This document shows, piece after piece, positions 25,753-42,925 of a DNA stretch of 64,000 nucleotides. A program made the translations under genes and the position numbers. The DNA comes from a bacterium (GTDB lineage Bacteria; Patescibacteriota; CPR2; UBA1875; CAIMLA01). Where the stretch lies: NCBI GenBank assembly GCA_037129835.1, contig JBAXUE010000003.1:18793-82792 (forward strand), written 5' to 3'. The notes beneath the pieces were generated by a model, which was given only the letters and a program-made list of their open reading frames with translations, had not been told where the DNA came from and did not search any database. Position 1 is the stretch's first letter. Each line of letters starts with the position of its first letter.

Positions 25753-26415
25753 CTAAAGATTTATATCTATTTTTTCTGTGTTGGCACCCTTGTCTTTTAG
25801 CCAAGTGATAACGTCTTCACTTGTTCCTTCGTTTGAATAAGAAACAAGAATATTGACCCTACCGTTTAGCATTAGCGAACCTTCAAAAATGGTAAATTTA
25901 TCATTTTCAACAGGTATGCTACTAATAAATTCAAAACCCTTTGTTTTACCTTCTTCAAAGGCATCTTCTTCGGACATTAATTTTTCTGTCATCGAAGTGC
26001 TGATCATCTCATTTTCTTTTAATGCCCTGGTCTTAAAAGATATGTCAGACACGCGTCCCTTTAGCGACAGAAAATCAGAATAGGGTGTTATTGTTAATGT
26101 ATATTCATTATTTGGAAGCAAGTAACCATTCTTTTCAAAACTAATAAATAATTTATTTTTACTCACCGAGGACTGCACCACTGGTTTGTAGCTTGAGTTG
26201 ATTTTGTCTTTAATTTCTACTTTTGTTAGACCCTCTTTGATGTTAGAACCATAAGTGAGGATTATCTTGGGCTCTAGCGCTACATTTTCTTGGCCTGTTA
26301 CCACAGAACTATCCTTGAGTTCGGGGGGTCTAAGAATAAAGGGTAGTGTAACTATGCCTACAAATAAAAAACCTATTAATGTAAATATTATAATCAGTCT
26401 TGTTTTTGACTCCAT
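25753..26415 (-). CDS. N-terminally anchored extracellular protein of unknown function (last gene of the T4SS/hydrolase array)
   Basis: 220 aa; single N-terminal TM (LIIIFTLIGFLFVGIVTLPFIL), rest hydrophilic and beta-rich. Confidence 0.5.
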   Translation of the reverse strand: MESKTRLIIIFTLIGFLFVGIVTLPFILRPPELKDSSVVTGQENVALEPKIILTYGSNIKEGLTKVEIKDKINSSYKPVVQSSVSKNKLFISFEKNGYLLPNNEYTLTITPYSDFLSLKGRVSDISFKTRALKENEMISTSMTEKLMSEEDAFEEGKTKGFEFISSIPVENDKFTIFEGSLMLNGRVNILVSYSNEGTSEDVITWLKDKGANTEKIDINL

Positions 26416-27023
26416 TATTCGGCCTCAAAACTATTGCCAAAACGAAGCCAGGTTCCGCGGCCATAGTTTGGATAGCTTTTAATCATCACGCAGGCACCAG
26501 CGTTGCCCTCGATGGTGTACAGTCTGGTGCCGACAATATTATAGACTATTCCAATGTGATGATCTTTCTGGATCATATCCCCAGGTTTTGGAATTTTTGT
26601 AGTGATATCGTATTTATATTTTAAGCTGTCCATCATGCCATTCGCTGCACAGGTATGAGGAAAGCTTGCACCAGCATGCCCGTATACCCACCCGGCAAAG
26701 CCTGCACACCAAGGCCAATCACTAGGAGAAAGACCACAGGCGTATTTCACATATTTTTGTGGGTCACCCTCATTTTGTTGAGATCCGGTGCCACACACCT
26801 TGGCGTCAAACTCCTTTTGGGCTTCGTCTATTATCTTTTGCCTAATCCCCGTAAGATTAGTCGGCGGCGTAAAAGCTCCTGGGATAATAGCAGTGGGAGA
26901 AAAATATGGGCAAGAAAAAAAGTCGACAGCACGAACCAGCTTGGGGTTAATTGAAATAATAACGATTAACAACAGTGTAGAAAAGATGACAGCAACCAGG
27001 TGTGTAGTTTTTTTGTTATTCAA
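26415..27023 (-). CDS. Secreted CHAP-domain peptidoglycan amidase/endopeptidase
   Basis: Signal peptide then FFSCPYFSP motif; Cys in WCAGFAGWVYGHAG and His in DHHIGIVYNIVGTRLYTIEGNAG are CHAP-like. Confidence 0.55.
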   Translation of the reverse strand: MNNKKTTHLVAVIFSTLLLIVIISINPKLVRAVDFFSCPYFSPTAIIPGAFTPPTNLTGIRQKIIDEAQKEFDAKVCGTGSQQNEGDPQKYVKYACGLSPSDWPWCAGFAGWVYGHAGASFPHTCAANGMMDSLKYKYDITTKIPKPGDMIQKDHHIGIVYNIVGTRLYTIEGNAGACVMIKSYPNYGRGTWLRFGNSFEAE

Positions 27024-27639
27024 CGGTATACTCTATCTGCAACTTGTTGTAGTCTTTGTCTGTGGCTAGTAGCCACTCTTCTGCTTCTTTGGCGTAAGTG
27101 TCTCGTTTACTAGAGTCGCCGGCCAATACTAGGGTGATTAATATATTCGGTTTTGAATCTTGATTTGCATAATTAATATCTATTCTATAATTACTTTTAT
27201 AATAAGGTAGATTGGCAAGAATGGGGTAATCCTTAACTAGCTTGTCTAATTTTTCTTGGGACTTTGTTTCCATTGCGTATTCAACATCGTATAGATCTTC
27301 TGTGGAAAGCTTGTCGTATGTAATGGTTGTCGTATCTGCATCGAGGGCGACCTCAACTGTTTGAGTCTTATTATTCGCCACATCGAAAGACGTTGTCTTA
27401 CTTATAAAAAGATCCTGAGAAAACACTATGTTATAATGGCCGGAGCTTAAATAGATTGTTTGGTCGCCAGTATATTTTTTATCTCCGATCGAATAGGAAA
27501 CCCTTTTAGGGGAAACTACAAACTTGACATTTGCACCCCCGCGCAGGGCATAGTTTACCCCAAATAAAAGAATTAAAAGCAAAGCAAAAGATCCCGCTAT
27601 AAACAAGTATAAGGTAATTTCATTTTTTGATATATTCAC
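27016..27639 (-). CDS. Membrane-anchored PEGA-domain protein (paralog of 30628..31371)
   Basis: N-terminal TM; VVSPKRVSYSIGDKKYTGDQTIYLSSGHYNIVFSQDLF is PEGA-like; C-terminal LANLPYYKSNYRIDINYANQDS is shared with 30628..31371. Confidence 0.45.
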   Translation of the reverse strand: MNISKNEITLYLFIAGSFALLLILLFGVNYALRGGANVKFVVSPKRVSYSIGDKKYTGDQTIYLSSGHYNIVFSQDLFISKTTSFDVANNKTQTVEVALDADTTTITYDKLSTEDLYDVEYAMETKSQEKLDKLVKDYPILANLPYYKSNYRIDINYANQDSKPNILITLVLAGDSSKRDTYAKEAEEWLLATDKDYNKLQIEYTVE

Positions 27640-27648
27640 TCGACCTCC

Positions 27649-28296
27649 TTATTTTAACCGAACAGCCCAAGACATATCAGAATACCACGACTTACACTTT
27701 GGTCTGTAGGCATGTTTACCGATTGATGCGCCCAAAACCCCACCAGGACACCCACAGTAGCCAGGGCCGACATAAAGCATGGCATGTGAGCCGTAGTCTA
27801 CATTAAATAGCATATCGCCTGGCTGTAGTTGTTTTGTGCTAGTTACGGGATGAATAATTTGATATTTATCAGAATGTTTATTGTAGTAGTTTTTAATAGC
27901 TTCGCCCGCTAGCGTATTTACTAGTGCGCTTGGATCTACTCCTGAATGCCTAAGAGCCGTGACCACGAAACCGTAACAGTCGGTCACTCCCTTTTCTTTT
28001 TCGTGATCGTAAAGCGAAGGATTTTTTATATATTCACAGCCTTTTGCAATAAGGGCAGTCGCACCAGCTCCAGGAGTGCCGGGCAGTCCGGGAGTGACAC
28101 CACCCGTCCCTCCGCCGCCTGTTCCGCCGCCACCCGTACCGGGGGTAACCACTGGGGATACGTAAATGGGACAATCGAGGAAGTTAATTGCCCTTGTTGT
28201 TTTGGGATAGGCAATAAAACAACAGAGAACTAAAAGAACTGCCGTGAATATTATTAAGGATTGTTTTCGTTTATTTTTCAATCTCATACCTTTCAA
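27649..28296 (-). CDS. Secreted NlpC/P60-like cell-wall endopeptidase with Gly-rich linker
   Basis: Signal peptide then INFLDCPIYVSP, linker GTGGGGTGGGGTGG, Cys in TDCYGFVVTAL and His in SHAMLYVG; C-terminal KCKSWYSDMSWAVRLK shared with 31349..32047. Confidence 0.5.
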   Translation of the reverse strand: MKGMRLKNKRKQSLIIFTAVLLVLCCFIAYPKTTRAINFLDCPIYVSPVVTPGTGGGGTGGGGTGGVTPGLPGTPGAGATALIAKGCEYIKNPSLYDHEKEKGVTDCYGFVVTALRHSGVDPSALVNTLAGEAIKNYYNKHSDKYQIIHPVTSTKQLQPGDMLFNVDYGSHAMLYVGPGYCGCPGGVLGASIGKHAYRPKCKSWYSDMSWAVRLK

Positions 28297-28966
28297 TTGT
28301 GGTTAGTCCAGTGGCAAGATTAATAATATCTAAAGGAATTCCCAGCTCATTTAATAAGGCACTATCGTAATCCGTGCCGGGGCCGTATACCACCCTCCAA
28401 ATACCTTCTTCCTTTTTTTGGATTATCATCGCATCTTCCACTTCTTCGTAGGACGCCTTTATCCACGATATGGCCCAGTCGTTAATAATTTTTTTATTTA
28501 CCGACTCAAAAGGAATATCTACATTGCCTTTTATGTTGTCATCTATTTGCTGAAAATCATTTTGATATTCATTTAGCATTTCTTTCTCTTTGAAAATAAT
28601 GAGGTTCGTTTTTTCTAGGGCTTGTTTATAGTTATTTTGTTTAATAAGGTCTGTTGCTTCTGATAAATCTTTATCAAAATATTCAGGATTGTAATTTATT
28701 TCAGCTAAGTCATTTTTAATACCTGCACGAATGACAGCTATAGAGTAGTTAATACATGTGGACTCATTGTCTTCACAGTTTGGGTATTCTTCTGAGGGCG
28801 TCCATTTATCATTACTAGCTAGTTCTTTAAAGGTTCTCGCATCGTAGGCCGTTGTAGATTGTTGAACCAGATATATAAGGCCAATAATAACAAGTAGCGC
28901 CAAGGACAAGCCCGAAATAGCCACGATATAAAGTGTTTTTTTGTCTTTTATTAGATTGGTTTCCAA
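28271..28966 (-). CDS. N-terminally anchored extracellular protein, unknown function
   Basis: 231 aa, one N-terminal TM (LYIVAISGLSLALLVIIGLIYLV), acidic ectodomain; overlaps neighbours (operonic). Confidence 0.5.
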   Translation of the reverse strand: METNLIKDKKTLYIVAISGLSLALLVIIGLIYLVQQSTTAYDARTFKELASNDKWTPSEEYPNCEDNESTCINYSIAVIRAGIKNDLAEINYNPEYFDKDLSEATDLIKQNNYKQALEKTNLIIFKEKEMLNEYQNDFQQIDDNIKGNVDIPFESVNKKIINDWAISWIKASYEEVEDAMIIQKKEEGIWRVVYGPGTDYDSALLNELGIPLDIINLATGLTTIERYEIEK

Positions 28967-28999
28967 AGTTGCCCCCTTATTTTTTTAGATAAGACCCAT

Positions 29000-29533
29000 T
29001 CACTCCACTAACCCTAGGTCAAAAACCTTAAAAGCGTTTCCCTCGTCCTTTATTATTGTTATCCAATAATTTTGTTTTAAAGAATTTTTTTCTGTAGAGC
29101 TTGATAGCGTTGTATCAACACTTACTAAAAGGCACATATGCCCACCCTCTTGTTCCTCGCAGTATTCTACCGGCCCAGATGCGGCAGAGCTGTCTGTTAT
29201 AGGAGATACGAGGTTTACGTTTTCATATTCCAAGACAGGGCTGTCTTTTGTAAAATATTTTAGCAACCTTTCTTTGCGGGATTCTGTTGTTTCAGAAATT
29301 GATTGTTGGGAATACTCTTCTATTGCTTTCTGCGCCAATAATGTCTGATTGTTTAGGCTCCATTCCTCCCGCTTGTCCGCTACGCTATTCGTTATTTGCT
29401 TATCGTTTTTCTTATTTGTTGTTACTTTTTCATTTGTGGAATTAATATATAGCACGAAACCTATAAATATTAATATAGTGCCAGCGATAATAGATATAAG
29501 CAGCATTTTATTTTTATTCATCTTAACCTCCAC
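29000..29533 (-). CDS. N-terminally anchored extracellular protein, unknown function
   Basis: 177 aa, N-terminal TM (MLLISIIAGTILIFIGFVLYI), Cys-containing ectodomain. Confidence 0.5.
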   Translation of the reverse strand: MEVKMNKNKMLLISIIAGTILIFIGFVLYINSTNEKVTTNKKNDKQITNSVADKREEWSLNNQTLLAQKAIEEYSQQSISETTESRKERLLKYFTKDSPVLEYENVNLVSPITDSSAASGPVEYCEEQEGGHMCLLVSVDTTLSSSTEKNSLKQNYWITIIKDEGNAFKVFDLGLVE

Positions 29534-30641
29534 TCATTGACCAATGCCAATCCTCTGCAGGATAATTAATAAAACCATATGTTGCACCATTTTTCTTTAA
29601 CCATTTATATACAGGATCTCCCTTGCTTACTAACGATCCTTTATAAGTAAAGTCAATAGCAAGGCCTCTTTCGTGATTAGAGTTTCCTGGTTTGGCTACC
29701 TTACCTCCACAATTTGGTGAGCAACCGGCATATATACCTTGTTGCGTTTCGTAACTGCGAAACCCGCTCCCGCTTAAGGAGACGCCGTCTGCCTTTGCTG
29801 CCGCAATCATTTCCACTGTTCTTTGAGAAATTAGGGCGTTAACCACCCCTACTGCAGTGCCACACTTTCGGAAAGTAAATCCGTTCGTCGGGTGCTTATA
29901 AGTCCCCTTGTCAGAAGAACCTGAGGCATATGCGACACTTGAATAATCCGTTCCATTCTTTAAGCTCCACCCACTTCCCTTACTGATGGTATTTGCTGGC
30001 TTTGCAGTGCCAGAACCACCACCAACACTTGTTGTGGTTGTTGGTGTTGCGGCCAGCTTGCATTTTGGTCTCGAGAAACCGGCTAGATCAGAGCGCCCAT
30101 AAGAAGAGATTCTAACATATGCCCCCGTATATGGAGCCTCTATCATTTTGCCACCACCGATTACCATTCCTACGTGGTGGATAGGACTCCCGAAAAACAC
30201 TAAATCCCCGGGTAGCTCGCTTCCTTTACTGACCTTTGGCTGACCAGAGTATTGGTCACCAGAATAATGCGGCAATGAAACACCTGCCTTTTTATACGCA
30301 TATAGCATGAGCCCCGAGCAATCAAAGCTATTGGGGCCAGCGGCTGCCCAAACGTAAGGCTTCCCTATTTGTTTCTGAGCTTCGGCTACGGCGATGGCGG
30401 CACAGGCATTCGGTGTACCGCTGATAGTCCCCCCACCAGCACCACCACCCGTCCCACCACCAATACCCGGAATCGTTGGCAAGGTTATGGGCTTGATATA
30501 AATAGGACACTCCCAAAAGGAGATAGCCATTGTTTTAATGGGTATTATGAATAACAGACCAAGGCTCACAAACAATAGTCCAAACAAAAGAAATACTTTT
30601 CTTGGAACCAGCCTCTTTATTTTATTGTTATTCCGCGACAT
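29523..30641 (-). CDS. Bifunctional secreted peptidoglycan hydrolase: NlpC/P60 endopeptidase + VanY/M15 D,D-carboxypeptidase-like domain
   Basis: Signal peptide then ISFWECPIYIKP, Gly linker GGGTGGGAGGGT, NlpC/P60 Cys FDCSGLMLYAY and His HHVGMVIGGG; C-terminal SGFRSYETQQ and NSNHERGLAIDF match M15 Zn-peptidase motifs. Confidence 0.6.
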   Translation of the reverse strand: MSRNNNKIKRLVPRKVFLLFGLLFVSLGLLFIIPIKTMAISFWECPIYIKPITLPTIPGIGGGTGGGAGGGTISGTPNACAAIAVAEAQKQIGKPYVWAAAGPNSFDCSGLMLYAYKKAGVSLPHYSGDQYSGQPKVSKGSELPGDLVFFGSPIHHVGMVIGGGKMIEAPYTGAYVRISSYGRSDLAGFSRPKCKLAATPTTTTSVGGGSGTAKPANTISKGSGWSLKNGTDYSSVAYASGSSDKGTYKHPTNGFTFRKCGTAVGVVNALISQRTVEMIAAAKADGVSLSGSGFRSYETQQGIYAGCSPNCGGKVAKPGNSNHERGLAIDFTYKGSLVSKGDPVYKWLKKNGATYGFINYPAEDWHWSMSGG

Positions 30642-31371
30642 ACCTCACCTGTAGGTTTGCATAGTTAGGATCTTCTGTTTTTAGCCAATCTTCCGCTGCT
30701 TGTTTAAAGGGGCCTTCTAGTTCGGTTGCGCCTTTTGTCAAAAGAGTTATCTCTATAAATGGCAAGGCTGAGTCATCGTTTTCGTAGCTTATGTCAATAT
30801 GATAGTCGCCGGTATAGTATGGTAGACTGCCAAGTATGGGGTATGAAGAAACTAGGTCGGCCAACTCTTTATCCCCTTCTGCCTCTGATATTTTGTCTAT
30901 AGTATTTTGTTCTTCGATAGACAACTCCTCATAATAAGCGTTGGCGGCCTCGTCACTCGTTTGTTCGTTGAAATAATCTACAACCTTTTTGTCTGCCGCA
31001 GATAGATCGTCATATTTAATTTTATTGCTACTTTTTAAGCTTAGAGGAATCAGGTCTACCGCAATTGTTTGATCTTTATTGCGTTCTGCTATTATCTCAA
31101 TATTCTTGTCGTTAAATAAGTCTCTTTTAAAAATGACGTTGTAATGTCCAGGAGGAACTACGATTGTTTGGTTCCCAGTATATTTTTTCTTATTTATTGT
31201 GTATGTAGCATCTGCGGGACTAATCGCGATATAGATTTTTGTAGTATTGCCTACAAAAAACAATAAACTGATTCCTAGTGCCAAAATAATAAATGTTGCA
31301 AACGCTATTAGGGCATATAAAATATTCTTTTTTTTCTGTTCTTCCATCTTAATTACCCTCTTCAAAATCAC
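30628..31371 (-). CDS. Membrane-anchored PEGA-domain protein (paralog of 27016..27639)
   Basis: N-terminal TM; IAISPADATYTINKKKYTGNQTIVVPPGHYNVIFKRDLF PEGA-like; C-terminal LGSLPYYTGDYHIDISYENDDS. Confidence 0.45.
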   Translation of the reverse strand: MILKRVIKMEEQKKKNILYALIAFATFIILALGISLLFFVGNTTKIYIAISPADATYTINKKKYTGNQTIVVPPGHYNVIFKRDLFNDKNIEIIAERNKDQTIAVDLIPLSLKSSNKIKYDDLSAADKKVVDYFNEQTSDEAANAYYEELSIEEQNTIDKISEAEGDKELADLVSSYPILGSLPYYTGDYHIDISYENDDSALPFIEITLLTKGATELEGPFKQAAEDWLKTEDPNYANLQVRYVAE

Positions 31372-32047
31372 TTAGTTTGGCCATAGCTAGCAATTCCTGT
31401 ATTTCGTCATCGCTGGGGCTTTCTACTAATTGGCCCACAGCGGGTTTAAGTCTTACGACTGTTGTCATTTTCTTTGTCCAGCTGCTGCACTTTGGGCCAT
31501 GTCCACCAAGTGAGGCTGAAATTACGCCACCCTTACAGCCACAATATTTTGAACCAACAAACATGCTGGCGTGCGAGTTTGATGACTTGGTGCTAAAAAG
31601 CATGTCCCCAGGCATCAACTTCTTGGTGCTTTTTATCCCCTTTATGACCTCATATTTATCAGTGTTTTTGCTGAAATATTTTGGAGCTTGATATGCCTGT
31701 CCCGAATCTGGAACCTTGGTGTCTACTTTGGTTCGTCGAAGCGCAGTAATCAGCATACCCCAGCAGTCTGTAAAGTCCTTGGACTTGACCTTTTCTTTTT
31801 TATAGAGCGACGAGCTATTTTTATAATCACACACCTTTTTTTTAAGTGTTTCTGCATCTATATAATATTCTTGATTACAACTTCCCGGCGGAGATGTAAA
31901 CATGGGGCAGGGAATAGCCTCTGCAAATGCCACACCCCCCCATATTTGTCTGTCCACAACATTGAAAGCGCAGATGAATAATGCCAAAATCGATGCGGCT
32001 AGAATAATAATAGTTAGTCTTGTCTTTTTTCTGATATTTTTCCTCAT
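31349..32047 (-). CDS. Secreted NlpC/P60-like endopeptidase (paralog of 27649..28296)
   Basis: Likely start at MRKNIRKK with GGGGAGG 4 nt upstream (track start 32071); AIPCPMFTSP after the signal, Cys in TDCWGMLITAL, His in SHASMFVG, C-terminal KCSSWTKKMTTVVRLK. Confidence 0.5.
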   Translation of the reverse strand: MRKNIRKKTRLTIIILAASILALFICAFNVVDRQIWGGVAFAEAIPCPMFTSPPGSCNQEYYIDAETLKKKVCDYKNSSSLYKKEKVKSKDFTDCWGMLITALRRTKVDTKVPDSGQAYQAPKYFSKNTDKYEVIKGIKSTKKLMPGDMLFSTKSSNSHASMFVGSKYCGCKGGVISASLGGHGPKCSSWTKKMTTVVRLKPAVGQLVESPSDDEIQELLAMAKLSDFEEGN

Positions 32048-32251
32048 TTTTCCTCCCCAAGTATCACTCAAATAACATTATATATGGATACAAGTCAAAA
32101 TAATACTATTGAGCATGTGTTAATGTTTGTCCTTTGGCGAAATGGTTTCCTCGATTCTTGCTGGGCTATACGACTGATAATGTTTAGATAATGATGCGTT
32201 GAAGCATAAAAGGAGGCTGTTTTTAAATTAAGGCCCCCGCTACTCGGTTGT

Positions 32252-32776
32252 TTAGCCGGCCTTGCCTCCAGTGTTTGCGGTCATATCAAAATAAACGGTT
32301 TCGAGATTAGTTTTGTTTATTATTGAGTTATTAATATAATCCTTAGCTTCGTTCTTATATTTTTCGAAAGGCAGCTGATAAACAGTAATGTTGCAGATGT
32401 TACCACTTTCCATTTCTGTGCAATCTACGCTGTATTCCGACCCAATATAAGGGAGAAGATAGCTCTTTTTTAACTCATAAGTCTTGTTTCGGGTTTTGTT
32501 GGTCACTTCCAGTGTCGAAATCTCTGTCAGATAATCGTCTTTAGATATTTCGATTTTATATTTACCGGTCTTTAGTTCTATGGTTATCGGTGAGTTTCCG
32601 ACCACGGCACCATCGATTTTTATCTTTGCTGACCCAGGCACTGTGTTTATTGTTATTTTAGGTTTTCCGCTAAGCGCACTTGCAACCAGGGTAAGGACCA
32701 ATATTACTAGAAACAGAATTATAATTGCTATAATTATTTTAGTTTTTGTTTCTAGGTTAGAAATTATGGTGTACAT
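32252..32776 (-). CDS. Membrane-anchored PEGA-domain protein
   Basis: N-terminal TM then TINTVPGSAKIKIDGAVVGNSPITIELKTGKYKIEISKDDYL, a close match to the PEGA pattern. Confidence 0.45.
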   Translation of the reverse strand: MYTIISNLETKTKIIIAIIILFLVILVLTLVASALSGKPKITINTVPGSAKIKIDGAVVGNSPITIELKTGKYKIEISKDDYLTEISTLEVTNKTRNKTYELKKSYLLPYIGSEYSVDCTEMESGNICNITVYQLPFEKYKNEAKDYINNSIINKTNLETVYFDMTANTGGKAG

Positions 32777-34740: not shown

Positions 34741-36516
34741 CTATTCCGCCTCTTCTTTTTTCAGCGCCTTCTCTGGGTTTGTGTTCGCCAACAGGTTTTC
34801 TTGGTAACTTGGGATTATTTGCATAGCAACATGCCGAAGCCCAGCAATAAACAATCCCTCACCAACACCAGTAGTTACTAAGTAGTCTCTCTCTGTTTCT
34901 GTTAGTTTCCACGCCTCTTTAACATAATCAACTTGCGCCGGATGCTGCCGGAGGAGTATCGCCATAGAAGAGTTTTGTGCGATTGCGCGACCGTATTCGG
35001 AGCCAAAAAAGTCGGCTGCATCTTGAGCAATACAGGTAAGGCCAAGATAATATTTACGTCCTCTTTTTGCTAGCGAGAAAAGGAATTGTGCCGATTCAGG
35101 ATATTTCATAAGTACCCAGGCTTCATCAACAAACAAGAGGCGCTTTTTCTTTTCGCTTTTGATTTTATTCCAGATAAAGTTAAGTATTGAATACATTGCT
35201 ATCGGTCTCAGCTCATCCTCAAGGTCCCTGATAGAGAAAACCACCAAACGATTTTGCATACTTACATTGGATTGCTGATTCATAAGACCCGAGTATGTAC
35301 CATTTGTGTATTTATCTAGTCGAACCGCGATACTTTCACCGCCGTTGATGCTCTCCAAAACTTTTTGAAGATCATGAAATGTAGGTGGTTGTAATCCGTG
35401 AGTTTTTGGGTCTTCGGTAATACCCTTGGATGCGTATGCCTCGATGATTGCTTTGTCTAAAACATTGCTTTCTTCTGGAGAAATATTTCCAACCATGACT
35501 CGCACTAAACCAGCTAGCATTATTGTATTGCTACGAATGGACTCTATTGCCTCTTTTTCGTCATTTATCAAGGGAAGATCAAACGGATTTACGTGCTGTT
35601 CTGAATTAATGTTTATACTCAAGTAGCTGCCACCAAAGGCCAAAGAGAGCTCTTCATATTCATTTTCCGGATCAATTACAAGAATATCGGTGCCAAGAAT
35701 AAGAGACCTTATTAGCTCTAGCTTTACAGTATAGCTTTTCCCGGCTCCAGACATAGCGATAACAACAGAATTATAATTTGGTAAACTAAAGCGATCAAAA
35801 ATAATTAAACTATTGTTTATTTTGTTAATACCGTAAAACACCCCTGTATCTTGAGATAATGTGTCGGACAAGAATGGGAAAAAGGTGGAGATGGCCTCGG
35901 TGTCTAGGTTTCTTCCTATGGATATTTCCTCTCTATCAAGCGGTAGGGTCGAGTTGAACCCTTCTTTGCCTTGATAGAGTGTCCTTTTTGAATACACCAA
36001 GAGCTCATTAAGCATTTTTTCTACTCGATCAACACTGTCATTTAGTGATTCCATCGTTTCTGCGTATATGGTGAGATAGAATCCTACTTTAAATATTTTT
36101 GTCTGACCCGTAGCGATTTTTTCACGTAGATTCTCTACGTCCGCATATTTTGCCTCAAGGCCAGGATCCCTAACGAGACCTCTCTGGGCATTCATATCTA
36201 GAGTCGACTCTAACTGAGTTGACTTTCCTCTTAGTCTTTGGGCAATAGCTGCGTTGTCTTGAGGGTAGATGTGGATAGAAACATCAAGGGGTAGGTCGGT
36301 ATTAATGGTTTGTGAGAGCCATCCCGGGAAGAGCATCCTTGGGTAGTCGTATACAAATAGAGTTGTAAGATATACCTGGCCAAGCTTCAGGTGATCTACT
36401 GCTATTTCCAAAGCAGAAGGAGCCAGCAAGTCTCTTACACTTGTAAGCCCTTGTTGGAATACCTGCATTGCTCGAGTCTGTCTTAGTTCGTCTGCGCTTT
36501 TATTCTCTTGAAACAT
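34741..36516 (-). CDS. virB4: Type IV secretion ATPase VirB4/TrbE/PrgJ family (C-terminal two-thirds)
   Basis: Walker A VIAMSGAGKSYT, DPENEY, Walker B RLLFVDEAWVLM; 591 aa; Walker A at about aa 245, so the usual ~200-aa N-terminal domain is missing from this ORF. Confidence 0.7.
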   Translation of the reverse strand: MFQENKSADELRQTRAMQVFQQGLTSVRDLLAPSALEIAVDHLKLGQVYLTTLFVYDYPRMLFPGWLSQTINTDLPLDVSIHIYPQDNAAIAQRLRGKSTQLESTLDMNAQRGLVRDPGLEAKYADVENLREKIATGQTKIFKVGFYLTIYAETMESLNDSVDRVEKMLNELLVYSKRTLYQGKEGFNSTLPLDREEISIGRNLDTEAISTFFPFLSDTLSQDTGVFYGINKINNSLIIFDRFSLPNYNSVVIAMSGAGKSYTVKLELIRSLILGTDILVIDPENEYEELSLAFGGSYLSININSEQHVNPFDLPLINDEKEAIESIRSNTIMLAGLVRVMVGNISPEESNVLDKAIIEAYASKGITEDPKTHGLQPPTFHDLQKVLESINGGESIAVRLDKYTNGTYSGLMNQQSNVSMQNRLVVFSIRDLEDELRPIAMYSILNFIWNKIKSEKKKRLLFVDEAWVLMKYPESAQFLFSLAKRGRKYYLGLTCIAQDAADFFGSEYGRAIAQNSSMAILLRQHPAQVDYVKEAWKLTETERDYLVTTGVGEGLFIAGLRHVAMQIIPSYQENLLANTNPEKALKKEEAE

Positions 36517-37174
36517 CTGGTGTTTCTCCTACAAACTCTTTTGTTACTACGGATCTTTCTAAGGAAGACGCATCTGACATATAGCCAAACTTATCAATAC
36601 CTGGGTTGTATGAAATGTAATAGAGCTCTATTAGCCCTTGAGTATCAAGGGGGATACAGTTGATACCAATATTTTTTAAACCCATTTCTACGACAGAAGT
36701 TCTTTGATTAAGGGTGTTTATAGCCTTGTCGGTAGTTTTTGATATTAACTCCGTGTTCGGCTGCTCTTTTTGGCCAGCAATATATGGGAAGTATGGTACA
36801 ACGATGTAAAACTTTTTATCCATTAGGTTCGCTCTTTTTGTAATTTCTTCTAAGAAATTATGATAATCCTGAACGTGCTGAGCGGTGTAGTCGTCGGTGG
36901 CTTTTTTTGCGATATCTGAAATATTTTTTAAGTACTTTGCGAGATTAACCCTTCTAGATTGAACAAGAATTTGCATTGGAAAATCTACGGCATTGATCAG
37001 GTCCTGGAATGCCATTATTAGGCTTTCTTGCTCCCCCTCTGATCGGAGAGCGAAATTCAAGCTAGAAGACATGACAACTTTTCTCATTGACTTGTCTTTT
37101 AAATACACCACACCGTCGTGTATTTTATCTATTTCTAAAAAGCTTTGGGTGCTCGGTGCTTTTGGTTTAGCCAT
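36500..37174 (-). CDS. Candidate detached N-terminal domain of VirB4 (224 aa), overlapping the ATPase ORF by 17 nt in another frame
   Basis: 224 + 591 aa = 815 aa, a typical full VirB4 length; no TM; position directly upstream of virB4. Could be a real split, a frameshift or a sequencing error. Confidence 0.3.
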   Translation of the reverse strand: MAKPKAPSTQSFLEIDKIHDGVVYLKDKSMRKVVMSSSLNFALRSEGEQESLIMAFQDLINAVDFPMQILVQSRRVNLAKYLKNISDIAKKATDDYTAQHVQDYHNFLEEITKRANLMDKKFYIVVPYFPYIAGQKEQPNTELISKTTDKAINTLNQRTSVVEMGLKNIGINCIPLDTQGLIELYYISYNPGIDKFGYMSDASSLERSVVTKEFVGETPDVSRE

Positions 37175-37875
37175 TACTTTTTACCTCCAGGAGACTCTAG
37201 GTCTGCAAATTTATAGGCAGAGAGGTCTGGCAGATTACTGTTTTGACCCTTATTGGGATTTACTGTGGCAACTTGTGAAATAGCCGGTTCTCTGTTTTTT
37301 GCTACATTTTCGGCGGCATCATTCAGTGCCTGCGTTATCTCTTTGTTTCTGCTCGGAGTTTCGTTCAGTGCTATTTCTGCCGAAATATAGTCATCTGTCA
37401 TTTCTTCAATCCCACCGTCCAGAAGCGCCGCCATTTTTTTTATATGCGACAGCTCTTGGCGAACGCCTTTTTTGTTTTCAATGCCCGAGTCGAATGGTTG
37501 TCCAGTATCAGACTTACTCTTCAGTGTGACCTTTTCTGTTAATTTATTTAATGAGTCAAGTGCCCCGCCAGCATCTAGAGATTCTTTTGCCCATAATCGC
37601 AACTTTTCACCAGTATAGTACTGGTATAAAGGGAAGATATAATAATCAAGCGGCCTAGAATTGTATGGCACAAAGGCGAGCGAAAAAAATAGGGCTACAG
37701 GGAAAATAGCGGCGAGAACACCAACAAATATCGGTAGTTTGGCAGCGGTGAATAGCGTGTAAAATCCGAAGCCAAAACCAATCCCTGCAAGCATAAAGCC
37801 AAATTGTTTTAGGGTTAGCGGACCAAGGACTTGATCTGCAACCTCCACATCTTGTGGAACGTTATAGTAATTCAT
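37174..37875 (-). CDS. VirB3/PrgI-like small inner-membrane T4SS component with C-terminal soluble extension
   Basis: Two adjacent TM helices near the N-terminus (LTLKQFGFMLAGIGFGFGFYTLFTAAKLPIFVGVLAAIFPVALFFSLAFVPY) immediately upstream of VirB4, as for VirB3/PrgI/TcpE. Confidence 0.3.
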   Translation of the reverse strand: MNYYNVPQDVEVADQVLGPLTLKQFGFMLAGIGFGFGFYTLFTAAKLPIFVGVLAAIFPVALFFSLAFVPYNSRPLDYYIFPLYQYYTGEKLRLWAKESLDAGGALDSLNKLTEKVTLKSKSDTGQPFDSGIENKKGVRQELSHIKKMAALLDGGIEEMTDDYISAEIALNETPSRNKEITQALNDAAENVAKNREPAISQVATVNPNKGQNSNLPDLSAYKFADLESPGGKK

Positions 37876-37911
37876 TTATCTTCCTATATACCATTTAATG
37901 CTTCTTTACAC

Positions 37912-40329
37912 TTATAAATCATCAATTTGCTTGTTTATTGCAGTTGCCTTATCTTGTTCTTCCACTGTTGCGTGTGCTGGCCCCGCAGCCCTTGTTTCGT
38001 CAATGGTCGCTCTTTTCTCAGCTTCTTCGAACTTTGCCTGTTTGGCTGCTGCAGCCTTTTCTGTTGCGGTTGCCGCCGCCGCCGCATGTGCCGCCGCCGC
38101 TGCTGTTGCTGCCTTTGCGGCATCAATTTGTGCCCTGTTAATAGGCTCTGCTTCTTCTTGTGCCTTAGAAACTTCTTCTATCATCGCTTCTGTTTGGGCT
38201 GCGCTCTTGCTCTTTTCTCTTTTAGCTGATTTTTCAAAGGCGCCAAGAACCTTCTTGCTATCGGCAGTTACCTTGCCGGATCGATCCATGTGTGTAGAAG
38301 CGGCCGCAACTCTAGTATTGATTGTTTCTGTTTGTTCTTGACTAAATTGGCTGAAGTCGGTTACCTGGCTGAAGTCAACTAGGGCCATATGCTCTGGGTT
38401 GATTTTGCCGGTGTTGTCTGTAAATGTCTTTGAAGCATCGAAAATAATATTGTCTGCTTCTGCTCCGGTTTGCAGATCCCCTGGGTTGCTTGCTCGTAAT
38501 TTTTCTGCTCGTCTCTTCTCTGCGGCAAAGTTTTTACCCATGTTTCCAGCCAAAAGATCTTTGTAGTCTTTTCCGTTTGCTCTGATGACCGCAGAGGTTA
38601 CTCTGCTATCGCCCATGTCGCTAGCCTTTCTTTGTAGCCGTCCATTTTTAGCAGTCCATCTGCTTACCTTGCTTCTCTCTTCATCGGTAAGTACTGGGCC
38701 ACCATGATGTGAATTTTCCTCTTTTATGAACAGCTCTTGCATGTCCTTTGTTTTAAAGTCTTTGTAATATTCATCCTTTATTGGCACATCTGTTATTACG
38801 CCGTGTCTATCATATTCATATCCAGCCTCGGTTTCTTTCCCCATATGTGCAAACGCTTGATCACCTTTAAACTTGTAGTCACCATCTTTGTCTGTCAGTA
38901 CTCTGAGCCTCTCTCTGCCCATTGGATCAAAACTAGCTTCTTTGGTAACAAGTTCTTCGTCTCCGGCTTGTCTTTTCTCGGCGTCACCGTCATTAACTCC
39001 CAGAACTATCGCCGAAGCCTTACCAAGAATTCTTTTGCCAAAGTTATCAGAGTTGGCAGCCGCCTCTCCCCCAAGTCCACTATGGACTCTTTCATTCCAA
39101 GGTATACCGCTTTTATTCATAGCTTTTGACCCTTCCTTCATTACCATTCCGCCCAATGACTTTGCCTTGTTTGTTACCATGCCTTGCCCAGCCTTACCTA
39201 TGGCAGCAGCAGCCCCTCCGAGAAATTTGAGAGGTAAAAATATAGCGGCTATGGTAGCAACCAGGCCTGCAAAAAGAAGGTAATATGAAACCGGGTCAAA
39301 AATTTCTATAATAGATTTCGGTGCCCCGCCAGCCATAACATCAATTCCACCCCCCATTCCAAAGCTCTTGGAATTATCTGTTGCCCATGGATATTTTCCG
39401 CCAGTCACAATCTCATCTTGTATAAATTGTTTCCCTTTTTGTGACACCAGGGTCTTAGCAGTCCCCACAAGGCTAGTTTTAGAAGCGCCAAATGTAATCA
39501 ATTGGCCAACAAATAGGACTAATACAAATATTGGTAGGAAAAAGACCCACTTCGTAAATTCCTTCCACCAAGTGCTATATACGCTTTTTGTCCAAGGCAA
39601 CACGTTACAAGCAAAGGCCAGGGGCGCCAGGATGATGCACAGCATCACTACTACCGCCCTGAAAGCAAGCATGGCGCAAGCGCAAATCATAATCAGTAAG
39701 GCTATTATAGCGACAAATATTGAAAGGAAAGCGACCACCACGTTACTCCCTGTACCAATTCCTGAATATGTGGCCATTAGCACTTCAGTCATACTTTGAG
39801 TGCCGATTATTTGATTAACCATAACGCTTGCAAGGTCGTAAATCACAGCAGCAAGAGGACGACTAATAATCATCATAAAGATTGTCAGGGCAAGCTTGGG
39901 AACCATCGCCGAAAGTGTCCATTCCTTTAAGCCAACATTAAAGGTGGTTGCAAAGATGGCGACTAGCAGTGTGACTCCAAAAATAGAATAAGCTATAGTG
40001 TCGGTTGATACTACTAGTTGTTGATACATTGTGTTGGTTGGGTCGGTGCCTACGGTAATTACCATTTTAGACATGAACATAGCGAGGGATAACAGAACAA
40101 AGCCGAAGCCGTAAATCGCTTGAGCAATAGAGGTGAACATGGCGGTAAAAAAGTCGACGATCCAGTCAAGGGGATTTAGAGAGAATCTAGCAGCATAGGA
40201 AAGGCTTGGTGCTAGTAGCACGGTTGCTGCTCCTGCATATACATAGCCACGTTTATAAAATAAGCTTTTTATTTTTGCCCTTGTACGGGACACACTTTGA
40301 GCGATACCCATATAATCCCCCCCAAACAA
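37912..40329 (-). CDS. VirB6/TrbL/PrgH-like polytopic T4SS channel protein with long charged, Ala-rich C-terminal tail
   Basis: 805 aa; about 8 TM helices in the first ~400 aa, then a hydrophilic domain ending in AAKAATAAAAAHAAAAATATEKAAAAKQ; upstream of the VirB3-like and VirB4 genes. Confidence 0.4.
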   Translation of the reverse strand: MFGGDYMGIAQSVSRTRAKIKSLFYKRGYVYAGAATVLLAPSLSYAARFSLNPLDWIVDFFTAMFTSIAQAIYGFGFVLLSLAMFMSKMVITVGTDPTNTMYQQLVVSTDTIAYSIFGVTLLVAIFATTFNVGLKEWTLSAMVPKLALTIFMMIISRPLAAVIYDLASVMVNQIIGTQSMTEVLMATYSGIGTGSNVVVAFLSIFVAIIALLIMICACAMLAFRAVVVMLCIILAPLAFACNVLPWTKSVYSTWWKEFTKWVFFLPIFVLVLFVGQLITFGASKTSLVGTAKTLVSQKGKQFIQDEIVTGGKYPWATDNSKSFGMGGGIDVMAGGAPKSIIEIFDPVSYYLLFAGLVATIAAIFLPLKFLGGAAAAIGKAGQGMVTNKAKSLGGMVMKEGSKAMNKSGIPWNERVHSGLGGEAAANSDNFGKRILGKASAIVLGVNDGDAEKRQAGDEELVTKEASFDPMGRERLRVLTDKDGDYKFKGDQAFAHMGKETEAGYEYDRHGVITDVPIKDEYYKDFKTKDMQELFIKEENSHHGGPVLTDEERSKVSRWTAKNGRLQRKASDMGDSRVTSAVIRANGKDYKDLLAGNMGKNFAAEKRRAEKLRASNPGDLQTGAEADNIIFDASKTFTDNTGKINPEHMALVDFSQVTDFSQFSQEQTETINTRVAAASTHMDRSGKVTADSKKVLGAFEKSAKREKSKSAAQTEAMIEEVSKAQEEAEPINRAQIDAAKAATAAAAAHAAAAATATEKAAAAKQAKFEEAEKRATIDETRAAGPAHATVEEQDKATAINKQIDDL

Positions 40330-40440
40330 TTAATAATCATTAACAATAGTTTAAAACATATTACACTTTCAAGCAATAAAAAAGATGCTTCATGTGGAAG
40401 CATCTTGCGAAGTAATCTTTCGAACCCCTGGTTTGTTTCT

Positions 40441-40797
40441 TTAAAATCGCCCGATGATAAAACCAATAAGACTTACTAGTAGATAAGAGCCAGCAACGAT
40501 AGCTATACCGATAAGGCCAGAGGTAAGTATCTTTTTTGCGGTTGTTGACCTTGTTGGGTCTCCAGCAGAAAGCATGTACATTATACCGCCATAAATAAGG
40601 ACCAGTACGGCAATAGTAAATGTAACCCCCCATACTATGTCATAGATGCTAGTAAGAAAGTGTTGTAGCGTACTGCTACCAAACTGTGTGGTTACTACTG
40701 AAATAGCTTTCGCCATGGTTGTCATTGGTAAAAACAGAGCCGTTATTCCGAGGCCAAGCCCAAAACCGTTTATCATTTTTTGTTTATTCATATCCAC
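40441..40797 (-). CDS. VirB2/TrbC-like pilin-type protein 1 (signal peptide + two hydrophobic helices around a short polar loop)
   Basis: 118 aa; ...VLVLIYGGIMYMLSAGDPTRSTTAKKILTSGLIGIAIVAGSYLLV; paralogous to the next two ORFs. Confidence 0.45.
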   Translation of the reverse strand: MDMNKQKMINGFGLGLGITALFLPMTTMAKAISVVTTQFGSSTLQHFLTSIYDIVWGVTFTIAVLVLIYGGIMYMLSAGDPTRSTTAKKILTSGLIGIAIVAGSYLLVSLIGFIIGRF

Positions 40798-40849
40798 TCC
40801 TTATTATAAAAATATTTTAACATGTGCAGACCCATAGTCAACATCTTTT

Positions 40850-41248
40850 TTATGTAAACAGCGTTGCGAGATACCCAGCGAAGCTCACTAATAGTTTAGA
40901 TCCAGCGATAACAGCAATAGCTATAAAGATATATGTGAGATATTTTTTGGCCGTTGTCGCTCTGTTTGCGTCACCCGCCGAGGTCATATACATAATTCCC
41001 GCCATCACTACCGCCAGCGTGGCTGCAGTAAGAGTGACTCCAAGAAAAATATCAAAAATGTTACTCGTTATGCATGTGACCATTTCTACTCCAGAAATAC
41101 CAGGAGTAGATAGTTCGGTGCAACCCTTATAGAAGGGATTGGAAGAACCGGGGTCTCTGGCAGTCTTGTATGCGTGAGCAATTGTGCCCAACGGAAATAT
41201 TGAAAGAAAGACGGCTATAACAATAAGTAAATTGATTCGTCTTTTCAT
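40850..41248 (-). CDS. VirB2/TrbC-like pilin-type protein 2
   Basis: ...LAVVMAGIMYMTSAGDANRATTAKKYLTYIFIAIAVIAGSKLLV aligns with protein 1; start probably at the internal MKRRINLL (track start 41284 overlaps the upstream gene by 40 nt). Confidence 0.45.
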   Translation of the reverse strand: MKRRINLLIVIAVFLSIFPLGTIAHAYKTARDPGSSNPFYKGCTELSTPGISGVEMVTCITSNIFDIFLGVTLTAATLAVVMAGIMYMTSAGDANRATTAKKYLTYIFIAIAVIAGSKLLVSFAGYLATLFT

Positions 41249-41655
41249 TTGAAGTTGATGCCCATAAAAGAGAGGATAATCCAAAATGCTGACATCGCGA
41301 ATGCCCCCGTAAACGCTGCAATTATCATTTTTTTACCCTGCTCATACCTTGCGGCGTTACCAATGGAGACGAACATTGTGACCCCACCCAATATCATCAT
41401 TACAAGCGACAGGGTATATAAGATTGGGGCGGCATGACCGGCCATTTTACCAAGAGCTTGTGGCGCGTTGTCTGTATCATCAAATAAGCCGTGATTTAAT
41501 AGACTTCCAGCTAATATATTCGCGGGATAAGTAATAATAAAAGAAAATATTAAGGCATAAACAACATATGATTTTTTTTGCAATTGTTTAAATAGTTTTG
41601 TAATGGTGTGCACAGTCGAAACCCCCCTTGATATAAAAAGATTACACAACACCAT
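41245..41655 (-). CDS. VirB2/TrbC-like pilin-type protein 3 (more divergent)
   Basis: 136 aa; ...LVMMILGGVTMFVSIGNAARYEQGKKMIIAAFTGAFAMSAFWIILSF has the same topology; first gene of the minus-strand array, AT-rich promoter region upstream. Confidence 0.4.
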   Translation of the reverse strand: MVLCNLFISRGVSTVHTITKLFKQLQKKSYVVYALIFSFIITYPANILAGSLLNHGLFDDTDNAPQALGKMAGHAAPILYTLSLVMMILGGVTMFVSIGNAARYEQGKKMIIAAFTGAFAMSAFWIILSFMGINFK

Positions 41656-41676
41656 ACAATATTACAAGTATTTTTA

Positions 41677-42189
41677 TTGTTTATTAATACTATTTATCTG
41701 AAAGATTTTCTGTATTATAATTTACACATAATGACATTTGAAATTGAAAAATATTATAAATACAAAAAAGGCCCAATCTGGTATCTAGTCGTAGTGTCGG
41801 TTTTTTCTTTTTTTTCTTTTCGCGCCTATATGGCAAATGATTATTATCAGCTATTTCTTTATGCACTCGTCGCATCTGGTTTATTGGCCTATATATTAAT
41901 TAAGCCTTTGAAAAATAAAGTTGAAATAACAGAAAGCTCTATACATATCGATAAAAATGTTTTTCTCTTTGTTAACATGGACGGCTACATCCTTCTCGAG
42001 GACAAAGAAGTCTATATGTTTCATTTATTTATGAAGAGCAAGTGGAAGCCCACTATCAAGCTGACCTTTCTAAAGGAGCAGAAAAAAGATGTTGATAAAG
42101 TTGACACTTTTCTAGAAAAGAAGCTTAAAGTTTTGGAAAACGAAAAAGAGCCCTCGATGGATTACCTTCAAAGGCTCTTTAGGTTCTAG
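41677..42189 (+). CDS. Hypothetical small membrane protein, 2 TM + C-terminal PH-like (YcxB-like) domain
   Basis: 170 aa, Lys-rich, two hydrophobic helices (WYLVVVSVFSFFSF..., LFLYALVASGLLAYILI) followed by a soluble domain; divergent from the pilin operon. Confidence 0.3.
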   Translation: MFINTIYLKDFLYYNLHIMTFEIEKYYKYKKGPIWYLVVVSVFSFFSFRAYMANDYYQLFLYALVASGLLAYILIKPLKNKVEITESSIHIDKNVFLFVNMDGYILLEDKEVYMFHLFMKSKWKPTIKLTFLKEQKKDVDKVDTFLEKKLKVLENEKEPSMDYLQRLFRF

Positions 42190-42721: not shown

Positions 42722-42925
42722 CCATTTTTAACTTAATAATATTTTCTCACGTTAAGAATAATATAGCAATAACAAATTTCGATAAAAACAGAAATATTTG
42801 AGCACGATTTGGTTAATAATTTAGCGACAGCAATAATAAGGATATAATAATTTTAAACTTAGATTCGCAGTAAATACGCGATAACAAAAATAGTGACAAA
42901 ACATACATTATAGTCTAATATATTC

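Follow-up and report, generated by a model that had tools for sequence, protein, structure and literature searches.

Why would a bacterium keep, next to dnaA, a type IV secretion system (T4SS) lacking both a relaxase and a coupling protein and followed by a long row of wall hydrolase genes? The question is raised by a 64-kb stretch of contig JBAXUE010000003.1 (the window, meaning all 64,000 nucleotides analysed). Here, 18 consecutive open reading frames (ORFs) listed on the minus strand at 25753-41655 encode, in order of transcription, three VirB2-like pilins, VirB6, PrgI/VirB3, a split VirB4 and an 11-gene wall block in which exported peptidoglycan hydrolases alternate with membrane-anchored non-catalytic proteins. 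The locus is very probably a chromosomal Patescibacteria-clade T4SS of an uncultured, Saccharimonadia-related candidate phyla radiation (CPR) bacterium, with a role in host interaction rather than in conjugation. Within the window this T4SS lacks a relaxase and a type IV coupling protein (T4CP); it is chromosomal, vertically kept and of Gram-positive (PrgH-I-J-K-like) ancestry. The original prediction, made from the sequence letters, held that no system of such composition had been described, which is incorrect: four publications cover the same kind (PMC7427843, PMC10633639, PMC12102498, PMC12857230). The window copy is a new, unannotated member, ordinary except that its wall module is split over unusually many, fast-shuffling genes.

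The dense packing of the array is confirmed, with 10 of the 17 junctions overlapping by 1-40 nt and the remaining gaps measuring 0-180 nt. The end coordinate given previously, 42189, is wrong, as it belongs to a divergent plus-strand ORF (41677-42189) outside the operon, which matched no family and lacks homologues in related loci. The GC content of the T4SS block (38-45%) is close to that of its surroundings (35-45%).

The T4SS core is of the MPF_FATA type

Core genes were called by Pfam and NCBIfam hidden Markov model scans, with curated cut-offs quoted per family. The features of the core are as follows (lengths in amino acids, aa).

41245..41655, minus: g1, VirB2-like pilin paralogue, 136 aa (Pfam T4SS_pilin E 2.2e-5, 24.9 bits, below the cut-off of 26.6)
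40850..41284, minus: g2, VirB2-like pilin paralogue, 144 aa (T4SS_pilin 1.6e-5, 25.3 bits, below the cut-off; TrbC 2.5e-4)
40441..40797, minus: g3, VirB2-like pilin, 118 aa (T4SS_pilin 1.8e-8, 34.8 bits, above the cut-off; TrbC 7.8e-6)
40382..40406, minus: terminator-like hairpin between g3 and virB6 (10-bp stem, 4 GC pairs, T-run; a pattern match)
37912..40329, minus: g4, extended VirB6/TrbL-like polytopic membrane protein, 805 aa (homology to TrbL-positive orthologues)
37174..37875, minus: g5, PrgI/VirB3-like protein, 233 aa (Pfam PrgI 9.2e-10, 39.4 bits, cut-off 27)
36500..37174, minus: g6, VirB4 N-terminal domain gene (TrsD/'TraC-like'), 224 aa (conju_CD1110, VirB4_plasma)
34741..36516, minus: g7, VirB4 ATPase of the MPF_FATA/CD1110 type, 591 aa (conju_CD1110 362 bits, cut-off 325)

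An MPF_FATA-type core is thus present, consisting of VirB6, PrgI/VirB3 and a VirB4 encoded as a TrsD-like N-domain gene and an ATPase gene. The ATPase g7 spans positions 179-732 of the 752 in the NCBIfam profile conju_CD1110 and contains a Pfam TraG P-loop domain (E 1.4e-21), the nearest solved structure being a Gram-positive VirB4 (PDB 4AG5, E 2.9e-40). Residues G257, G259, K260 and S261 of Walker A, as well as D464 and E465, are invariant in an alignment of 24 sequences (g7 and 23 homologues). The preceding g6 shares 17 nt with g7; it aligns to positions 3-191 of that conju_CD1110 profile (E 2e-7) and to positions 103-282 of VirB4_plasma (1e-8), and has a precomputed assignment to Pfam PF26593 (TraC-like). 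Since the two genes cover complementary parts of one profile, the split VirB4 is real, as had been proposed, and g6 is the separate TrsD/'TraC-like' gene known for Patescibacteria-clade T4SS. Homologues of g7, sampled as the best 120 of 8000, mostly bear the names Patescibacteria/Saccharimonadia or 'bacterium'; two rows of this sample have other metagenome-assembled genome labels (Aenigmarchaeota, Dormibacteraeota). The best genome loci by g7 are labelled Ca. Saccharibacteria, and VirB4 is ~50% identical to Saccharimonadia homologues. NCBI annotates g7 as 'ATP-binding protein'.

Whereas VirB4 and PrgI (g5) match their models directly, the VirB6 assignment holds via homologues. No direct Pfam or NCBIfam match was obtained for g4, the C-terminal half of which is long, hydrophilic and Ala/Lys/Glu-rich. 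BLASTP links it to proteins in the same position in two related loci, L085 (699 aa, E 7e-41) and L087 (600 aa, 1e-21), and these positional orthologues match TrbL PF04610 (26.4 bits, cut-off 25.9) and TrbL_3. The related loci were collected by a scan with one genome per species, giving 80 loci, and homologues were counted over 84 loci: PrgI is present in 69, the VirB4 N-domain gene in 76 and VirB6 (tblastn matches of g4) in 47.

The three VirB2-like pilins of the original prediction are borne out by T4SS_pilin/TrbC matches, one above the cut-off and two just under it. g3 is 56% identical to g2 across 66 aa and 22% identical to g1 (E 3e-4), while g2 also matches the NCBIfam Mbov_0395 pilin-like family (8e-4). 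As the strongest pilin match, g3 is possibly the major pilin. By consensus match, promoter-like sites lie ahead of g1 (41742-41714) and of g3 (40841-40814, minus strand; TTGACT-16-TAAAAT with TG extension); such sites show no excess in the region (45 versus 41 ± 6 in shuffles), and individual ones are leads only. Terminator-like hairpins number 23, against 15.2 ± 4.3 in shuffles. The hairpin at 40382-40406 could act as a pilin attenuator, which would fit strong expression of the pilins combined with read-through into the genes for the machinery. Another terminator-like hairpin, likewise a pattern match, lies just downstream of the last gene, g18 (25718-25690).

The VirB6-VirB3-VirB4-hydrolase order was originally read as that of PrgH-I-J-K in Gram-positive conjugative T4SS, and this structural reading is right. 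Gram-positive MPF_FATA systems (pCF10 PrgH-I-J-K-L; CTn2/CD1110) share with the window the succession of VirB6, VirB3, VirB4, wall hydrolase and anchored small protein, a VirB4 above the CD1110 cut-off and, in g8, a multi-domain hydrolase in the PrgK position. Unlike them, the window locus has no relaxase, T4CP, oriT or adhesin, has a separate VirB4 N-domain gene as well as VirB2-like pilins (lacking in the Gram-positive systems), and is chromosomal, origin-proximal and vertically kept.

The locus belongs to a described kind of T4SS

The system was first noticed across Saccharibacteria in 2018/2020, when McLean et al. (2020) described a conserved region that encodes VirB4, VirB6 and VirB2 together with a competence gene and an array of small proteins bearing Sec signals (PMC7427843). 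Using transposon sequencing, Wang et al. (2023) found SEML1_0006-0019 of Ca. Southlakia epibionticum (S. epibionticum) to be essential for growth on the host; SEML1_0004 and SEML1_0005 are also essential according to the supplementary table, and this T4SS has pilins while lacking coupling protein and relaxase (PMC10633639). From 3,035 Patescibacteria genomes, Quinonero-Coronel et al. (2025) obtained a monophyletic Patescibacteria VirB4 clade nested in MPF_FATA. It is accompanied by TrsD, PrgI, VirB6 and VirB2 arrays of 2-11 genes, relaxases are nearly absent, the T4CP is far from virB4, dnaA/dnaN are in proximity, and comF is nearby in class ABY1 (PMC12102498). Patescibacteria systems are termed 'exciting newcomers' of the T4SS superfamily in a 2025 review (PMC12857230). 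The window locus displays the features of this clade: an MPF_FATA-nested, CD1110-type VirB4, a TrsD-like gene, a PrgI-type VirB3, VirB6, a VirB2-type pilin array, absence of a relaxase, proximity to dnaA/dnaN and, as in some classes, a comF gene nearby.

The closest parallel with published genetics is SEML1_0004-0019 of S. epibionticum ML1, where recF is likewise convergent with prealbumin/PEGA anchored proteins, hydrolases, VirB4, a separate TrsD-like gene, PrgI, VirB6, a pilin array and hsp20, in a cluster without relaxase or T4CP. The enzymatic activities are the same (glycosidase, Cys-peptidase, M15 peptidase). In ML1 these are carried by a lysozyme plus Cys-peptidase protein and an M15 DD-peptidase protein, two giants of 643 and 1113 aa, with two small anchored proteins; in the window they are unbundled and partly duplicated, with 11 wall genes, duplicated cassettes and a shared Cys-Pro leader. 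Hence the 'unusually large toolkit' of the original prediction is apt for the number of genes, which exceeds that of relatives, but not for the activities. Furthermore, the six pilin genes of ML1 lie on the opposite strand and its VirB6-like genes number two, while the window has three pilins co-directional with one VirB6. Identity at the sequence level is low.

From the literature, the window organism is expected to be monoderm and would therefore have no outer membrane to cross. In contrast, the Ptl system of Bordetella pertussis, a T4CP-less T4SS with associated Sec-signal proteins drawn on as an analogy by McLean et al. (PMC7427843), belongs to the diderm MPF_T machines, carries an assembled toxin across the outer membrane, and has no cargo homology to the window locus.

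No conjugation genes accompany the core in the window

Outside the locus, Pfam scans covered essentially every ORF of 70 aa or more in the 64 kb. No relaxase, VirD4/T4CP, VirB11, integrase or transposase was found among the matches, in agreement with the original prediction as regards relaxase, VirD4 and VirB11. VirB4 is the only T4SS-type (TraG P-loop/AAA_10) ATPase of the window; the other P-loop proteins are PilB (T2SSE), DnaA and RecF. An ordinary integrated conjugative element (ICE) would be indicated by a relaxase and VirD4 close by together with an integrase, and the window yielded none of these and no other recombinase, att-type repeats not having been searched for.

An ICE contained within the window is excluded, given the lack of relaxase, T4CP and integrase and the conserved slot described below. 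That the locus is part of an ICE whose relaxase and T4CP lie just outside the window is extremely unlikely. The VirB4 does belong to a family typical of Gram-positive ICEs (CD1110), yet no integrase, relaxase or T4CP occurs in 64 kb and no tRNA flanks the locus (the nearest of the four tRNAs, the only Rfam matches in the window, is ~4 kb beyond it). Moreover, the GC content is near that of the surroundings, and the same chromosomal slot is occupied in genomes whose DnaN is no more than 35-81% identical.

The slot and its wall module are conserved in relatives

Synteny across related genomes, proposed as a check on the original prediction, shows the same block in 30 relatives, bounded by virB4 on one side and, 3.2-8.7 kb downstream of it, by a convergent recF on the other. 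In three of the related loci (L085, L086, L087) the order is comFC/hsp20, pilins, VirB6, PrgI, TraC-like, VirB4, hydrolase, PEGA, dciA/recF/dnaN/dnaA. The T4SS slot between hsp20/comFC and recF/dnaN/dnaA is thus fixed across many related genomes, flanks included, even where DnaN is 35-81% identical; counted over the 84 loci, DnaN is present in 39, RecF in 33 and DnaA in 32, with a ComFC neighbour in 21. In one of them (L086, 8847-9140) a small GIY-YIG nuclease gene sits between prgI and the VirB4 N-domain gene of the T4SS operon.

The virB4-recF interval of the window is the longest, at 9.3 kb and 11 genes, compared with a median of 3 and a maximum of 6 genes in relatives. Pfam matches of 95 virB4-recF ORFs from 27 relatives comprise Phage_lysozyme2 (13), PEGA (13), M23 (7), Glucosaminidase (5) and NlpC/P60 (4), in addition to SLT, VanY, amidases and CHAP. 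A PEGA-anchored family, recovered with an iterated g11/g16 profile, occurs in 34 loci, always on the same strand and downstream of virB4. These counts make the hydrolase-plus-PEGA module a general part of the system. VirB1-type hydrolases were poorly associated with virB4 when T4SS profiles were used (PMC12102498), whereas generic hydrolase and PEGA domains occupy the virB4-recF stretch in the window and at least 27 relatives; the PEGA-anchored family is not mentioned in the main text of that study. Orthologues of g8, g9, g12 and g14 are present in the nearest contigs, while g10, g11, g13 and g15-g18 are extras of the window lineage. The 11-gene wall module is hence a lineage-specific unbundling and duplication of a module encoded by 3-6 genes in relatives.

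It could be argued that the wall block is housekeeping autolysin or cell-division machinery that merely neighbours the T4SS in a highly expressed, origin-proximal region. All the enzymes are Sec-exported and of generic peptidoglycan hydrolase families, and origin-proximal genes are often highly expressed, an argument also raised in PMC12102498. However, the hydrolases directly follow virB4 on the same strand, often in overlapping frames, in at least 27 diverged genomes, and the first of them holds the PrgK/VirB1 position, which makes a housekeeping block very unlikely.

Enzymes and anchored partners alternate in the wall module

The wall module consists of 11 genes (g8-g18) downstream of virB4.

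32764..34740, minus: g8, membrane-anchored wall hydrolase in the PrgK/VirB1 position, 658 aa (Pfam Glucosaminidase 4.5e-6)
32252..32776, minus: g9, transmembrane (TM)-anchored PEGA protein, 174 aa (Pfam PEGA 8.2e-11)
31349..32071, minus: g10, exported NlpC/P60 hydrolase with Cys-Pro leader, 240 aa (NLPC_P60 6e-5, 23.4 bits, cut-off 23)
30628..31371, minus: g11, TM-anchored PEGA-like protein with a small C-terminal alpha/beta domain, 247 aa (paralogue of g16)
29523..30641, minus: g12, exported two-headed NlpC/P60 and VanY/M15 hydrolase with Cys-Pro leader, 372 aa (NLPC_P60 1.7e-23, VanY 1.1e-14)
29000..29533, minus: g13, TM-anchored orphan, 177 aa (Pfam TcpC 1.8e-3, below the cut-off)
28271..28966, minus: g14, TM-anchored conserved accessory protein, 231 aa (orthologues in relatives)
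27649..28296, minus: g15, exported NlpC/P60 hydrolase with Cys-Pro leader and Gly-rich linker, 215 aa (NLPC_P60 1.4e-4)
27016..27639, minus: g16, TM-anchored PEGA-like protein, 207 aa (paralogue of g11; virB4-linked PEGA family by profile search)
26415..27023, minus: g17, exported CHAP hydrolase with Cys-Pro leader, 202 aa (CHAP 6.5e-5, 23.8 bits, below the cut-off of 26)
25753..26415, minus: g18, TM-anchored Ig-like (Big_5) protein, 220 aa, last gene of the block (Pfam Big_5 2.8e-5)

Every protein of the module has a Sec-type leader or a membrane anchor, and every enzyme gene precedes one or more genes for non-catalytic proteins with an N-terminal anchor. Across all four smaller hydrolases (g10, g12, g15, g17), the catalytic Cys and His align and are retained. 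The CHAP and P60+M15 enzymes of the original prediction are present; P60-containing genes number three in all (g10, g12, g15), one fewer than listed there. Likewise, of the interleaved anchored proteins described as PEGA paralogues, g9, g11 and g16 are PEGA-type, while g13, g14 and g18 differ.

The g8 gene begins immediately after the g7 stop (34741/34740), which places g8 in the PrgK/VirB1-type position. The protein consists of a charged N-terminus, a TM segment, a Cys-rich middle, a Pro/Thr linker and a GH73-like C-terminus (Glucosaminidase match at residues 529-647; 27.8 bits, below the cut-off of 30.2). It has a 708-aa orthologue in L085 (E 1e-26) and is 49% identical to the copy in L088, a near relative of the window locus, which has no GH73-like C-terminal domain. 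Because the domain types differ from those of PrgK (LytM/SLT/CHAP), g8 is a PrgK analogue and not an orthologue; of the 'PrgK-like' label it was given before, the position after virB4 stands.

A two-gene cassette is duplicated, g10-g11 corresponding to g15-g16, with 47% identity between the hydrolases and 36% between their partners (over 241 aa, E 4e-38). The AlphaFold 2 model of g11 has a predicted local distance difference test (pLDDT) score of 68.5 overall and ~80 within its two domains, a transthyretin/PEGA-like sandwich and a small beta-beta-alpha-beta domain; the sandwich resembles transthyretin-like/carboxypeptidase-regulatory domains (Foldseek E 2e-4 to 1e-3). PEGA protein g9 has orthologues in L087 and L085 and belongs to the virB4-linked family seen in 34 loci, and g18 weakly matches the PEGA-family profile (5.8e-5). 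The two heads of g12 correspond to separate P60 and VanY genes in L088 (56% and 70% identity).

Orthologues of g14 were found in L085 (E 8e-19), L087 (2e-9) and L008, while Pfam scans and a family profile search against PDB sequences gave no match and an index of 5.8 billion proteins returned only g14 itself. For g13 the same index held a single non-self homologue, in addition to the 44%-identical copy in L088. With so few homologues, no deep alignments are available for structure prediction of either protein. The g13 model is of low confidence (pLDDT 51.8), with a pattern of helices followed by four strands; its Foldseek list is headed by NTF2-like folds, with the VirB8-like OrfG at rank 16 and every E at least 0.23, and a profile search against PDB sequences found nothing significant. 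This is suggestive of g13 as a weak candidate VirB8/TcpC-like (NTF2-like) protein, and homology is not claimed.

Comparison with L088 shows how unevenly the block evolves. Identity to the window is 95% for VirB4, 83% for the VirB4 N-domain gene, 63% for PrgI, 59% for a pilin, 42% for VirB6 and 33-78% for the wall module (g17 reaching the 78%), and the order of the wall-module genes is strongly rearranged.

Among the alternatives, the alternating gene pairs are most attractively read as an effector-immunity arsenal comparable to T6SS/T7SS cassettes, in which the hydrolases are T4SS-linked antibacterial or host-breaching effectors, the next gene encodes the cognate immunity protein or inhibitor, and an arms race drives diversification. 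The alternation occurs five times (g8/g9, g10/g11, g12/g13+g14, g15/g16, g17/g18) and is also seen in L087; the duplicated cassette, the rearrangement and divergence of the block next to a 95% identical VirB4, and the leader common to the hydrolases are further in keeping with such an arsenal. A precedent, the bacteria-killing T4SS of Xanthomonas/Stenotrophomonas (X-T4SS), also pairs a T4SS with peptidoglycan hydrolases, each beside a partner gene. Its effectors, however, are cytoplasmic and VirD4-dependent, with an XVIPCD signal at the C-terminus, and its immunity proteins are periplasmic lipoproteins. In the window, by contrast, the hydrolases are equipped with Sec-type leaders at the N-terminus instead of T4SS signals at the C-terminus, and there is no VirD4 to recruit effectors. 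Furthermore, PEGA-type partners are conserved, and essential in S. epibionticum (SEML1_0004, SEML1_0005), which suits a structural or assembly role better than that of a dispensable immunity protein. We therefore regard an effector-immunity arsenal as unlikely.

A Cys-Pro leader is common to the smaller hydrolases

The four smaller hydrolases (g10, g12, g15, g17) share a leader that begins with a Sec-type signal (A/T/V-x-A site), continues within six residues with an invariant Cys-Pro-[IYM]-[YF] motif and ends in a Gly/Thr/Pro-rich linker; in g10 it reads CPMFTSPPGSC. Among ORFs of at least 100 aa in the 64-kb window, the Cys-Pro motif is restricted to these four genes. In L088 it is found on five genes (locus positions 7473-13903) as 'CPVFTSPGGTCID' or close variants, joined to P60, VanY, CHAP and unknown heads. 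A six-frame search of 83 related loci gave chance-like matches only. Being confined to the window genome and its near relative, the leader is not a general T4SS signal. A lipobox was considered and rejected, as the residue preceding the Cys is D, E, S or P. The shared leader goes beyond the publications cited above.

The whole locus may have been replaced in situ

Pairwise identities point to a second mode of change. Compared with the window, two related loci (L086 and L008) have DnaA at 78-79%, DnaN at 80-81% and Hsp20 at 72-76% identity, yet VirB4 at 52%, near the floor of the whole clade; in other pairs with DnaN at 77-83%, VirB4 is 75-83% identical. The VirB4 of L086/L008 is closest to that of L007 (63-66%), a genome that by DnaN (54-55%) stands further off than L085 does (DnaN 62-67%, VirB4 56%). 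Such pairwise identities suggest that a divergent allele replaced the T4SS locus in situ, between conserved flanks. The hint goes beyond the publications cited above and is a modestly interesting lead.

Taken with the modular wall genes, it leads to a tentative proposal, which we consider possible though doubtful: a hypervariable host-interaction island in a fixed origin-side slot, where modular cassettes and whole-block replacement set which host walls can be breached. A lineage-specific leader would be joined to interchangeable heads (P60, CHAP, VanY, unknown), each enzyme with its anchored partner; cassettes would be duplicated, fused, split and reordered among close relatives, and the T4SS block would be swapped in situ through recombination in the conserved flanks. 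If true, the locus would be a determinant of the host cell walls that the epibiont can breach.

The surroundings of the locus

The genes on either side were identified by Pfam matches.

21525..25748, plus: dnaA, dnaN, recF and a dciA-like gene, convergent with the T4SS block
42215..45888, mixed strands: hsp20 (minus), paaX-like (plus), comFC-like (plus), pilB (minus)

The matches (Bac_DnaA 6.7e-75, DNA_pol3_beta domains, SMC_N/RecF and DciA 6.7e-3 on one side; HSP20 5e-17, PaaX_M, DZR_2 plus Pribosyltran for the comFC-like gene, and T2SSE 6e-109 for pilB on the other) agree with the neighbours named in the original prediction. The wider upstream neighbourhood consists of cell-envelope polysaccharide genes, an S8 protease, jag/khpB and yidC, then dnaA-dnaN-recF-dciA-like; downstream, hsp20, paaX-like, comFC-like and pilB are followed by rubrerythrin, heliorhodopsin, aminoacyl-tRNA synthetases and murein genes. 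The locus had also been described as next to oriC. DnaA boxes with at most one mismatch number 34 against 18 ± 4.5 expected, including two near-consensus boxes upstream of dnaA (21556, 21589) and a perfect one just after it (23038), but form no tight cluster; for this reason the proximity to oriC rests on gene content (jag-yidC, dnaA-dnaN-recF). At 503 aa, the longest dnaA ORF exceeds its relatives (449-454 aa) by ~50 residues; translation probably begins near 21672 rather than 21525, which leaves a yidC-dnaA spacer of ~185 nt.

The comFC-like gene and pilB within 4 kb of the locus, and the ComFC neighbour in relatives, might indicate a T4SS for DNA uptake or export of the competence type, like ComB of H. 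pylori or archaeal Ced. A weak match to NCBIfam CedB was also obtained (E 1.3e-9), with 37 bits against a cut-off of 700, and reflects only the shared VirB4/HerA ATPase fold. No DNA-processing protein is encoded in the locus. In S. epibionticum, according to the summary of PMC10633639 given in PMC12857230, competence needs type IV pili and ComEC, and a comEC deletion eliminates competence while leaving viability unchanged; the T4SS, in contrast, is essential. A competence-type T4SS is accordingly highly improbable. Of the functions first suggested, DNA uptake is thus weakened by the published comEC genetics, and epibiont-host interaction is the most plausible.

Several other genes of the window merit a record. 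A full-length heliorhodopsin (50905-51672, minus; PF18761 E 1.5e-85, profile positions 1-242 of 242) is encoded ~9 kb from the T4SS, so that this small-genome CPR bacterium carries a heliorhodopsin gene. An S8 subtilase (13330-15285, minus) and a 413-aa protein (1995-3236, minus) are both secreted and end in three tandem DUF5648 repeats (consensus 'YRFWN.NGTHFYTASE.EK'); both genes lie inside the cell-envelope polysaccharide cluster. At 47717-50056 (plus) a very acidic 779-aa protein has a central HD domain (E 2e-6) as its sole match, and the next gene encodes a 256-aa protein without a family match.

Proposed mechanism and significance

For the host-interaction T4SS that we favour, a mechanism can be proposed from knowledge of the T4SS family and from S. 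epibionticum genetics. VirB4, tethered by PrgI and VirB6, would supply the energy for building a membrane channel and a VirB2-type pilus. The Sec-exported hydrolases, comprising a GH73-like glycosidase, NlpC/P60 and CHAP peptidases or amidases and an M15 peptidase, would jointly cut every main class of peptidoglycan bond, opening the epibiont's own wall and probably that of the host for passage of the pilus or channel. The anchored PEGA-type and other partners following each hydrolase may position or restrain the enzymes. The machine would then serve contact-dependent exchange with a host bacterium, and not conjugation.

Some points weigh against this assignment. A T4CP could be encoded outside the 64-kb window, the source contig (ENA ERZ27300174:k141_715819) measuring 162,780 bp and VirD4 homologues being far from virB4 in many Patescibacteria (PMC12102498). 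The biological role is carried over by analogy from the cultured relative S. epibionticum, and the hydrolase target (host wall, own wall or both) is putative. Among the components, VirB6 is assigned through its homologues, no VirB8-like protein is firmly identified, with g13 merely suggestive, and two pilins, the CHAP domain of g17 and the GH73-like domain of g8 score below the Pfam curated cut-offs.

Nothing categorically new emerges from the window locus; the unbundled wall module and the possible replacement are modest leads. Single-domain hydrolases beside their putative partners are easier to express and test than the 600-1100-aa fusions of the cultured model. Quick turnover of the accessory module and, as the identities hint, even of the whole locus is what would be expected of a host-range determinant. 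Few machines besides the Patescibacteria T4SS are known to be indispensable to epibiotic life in a very large and mostly uncultured share of bacterial diversity.

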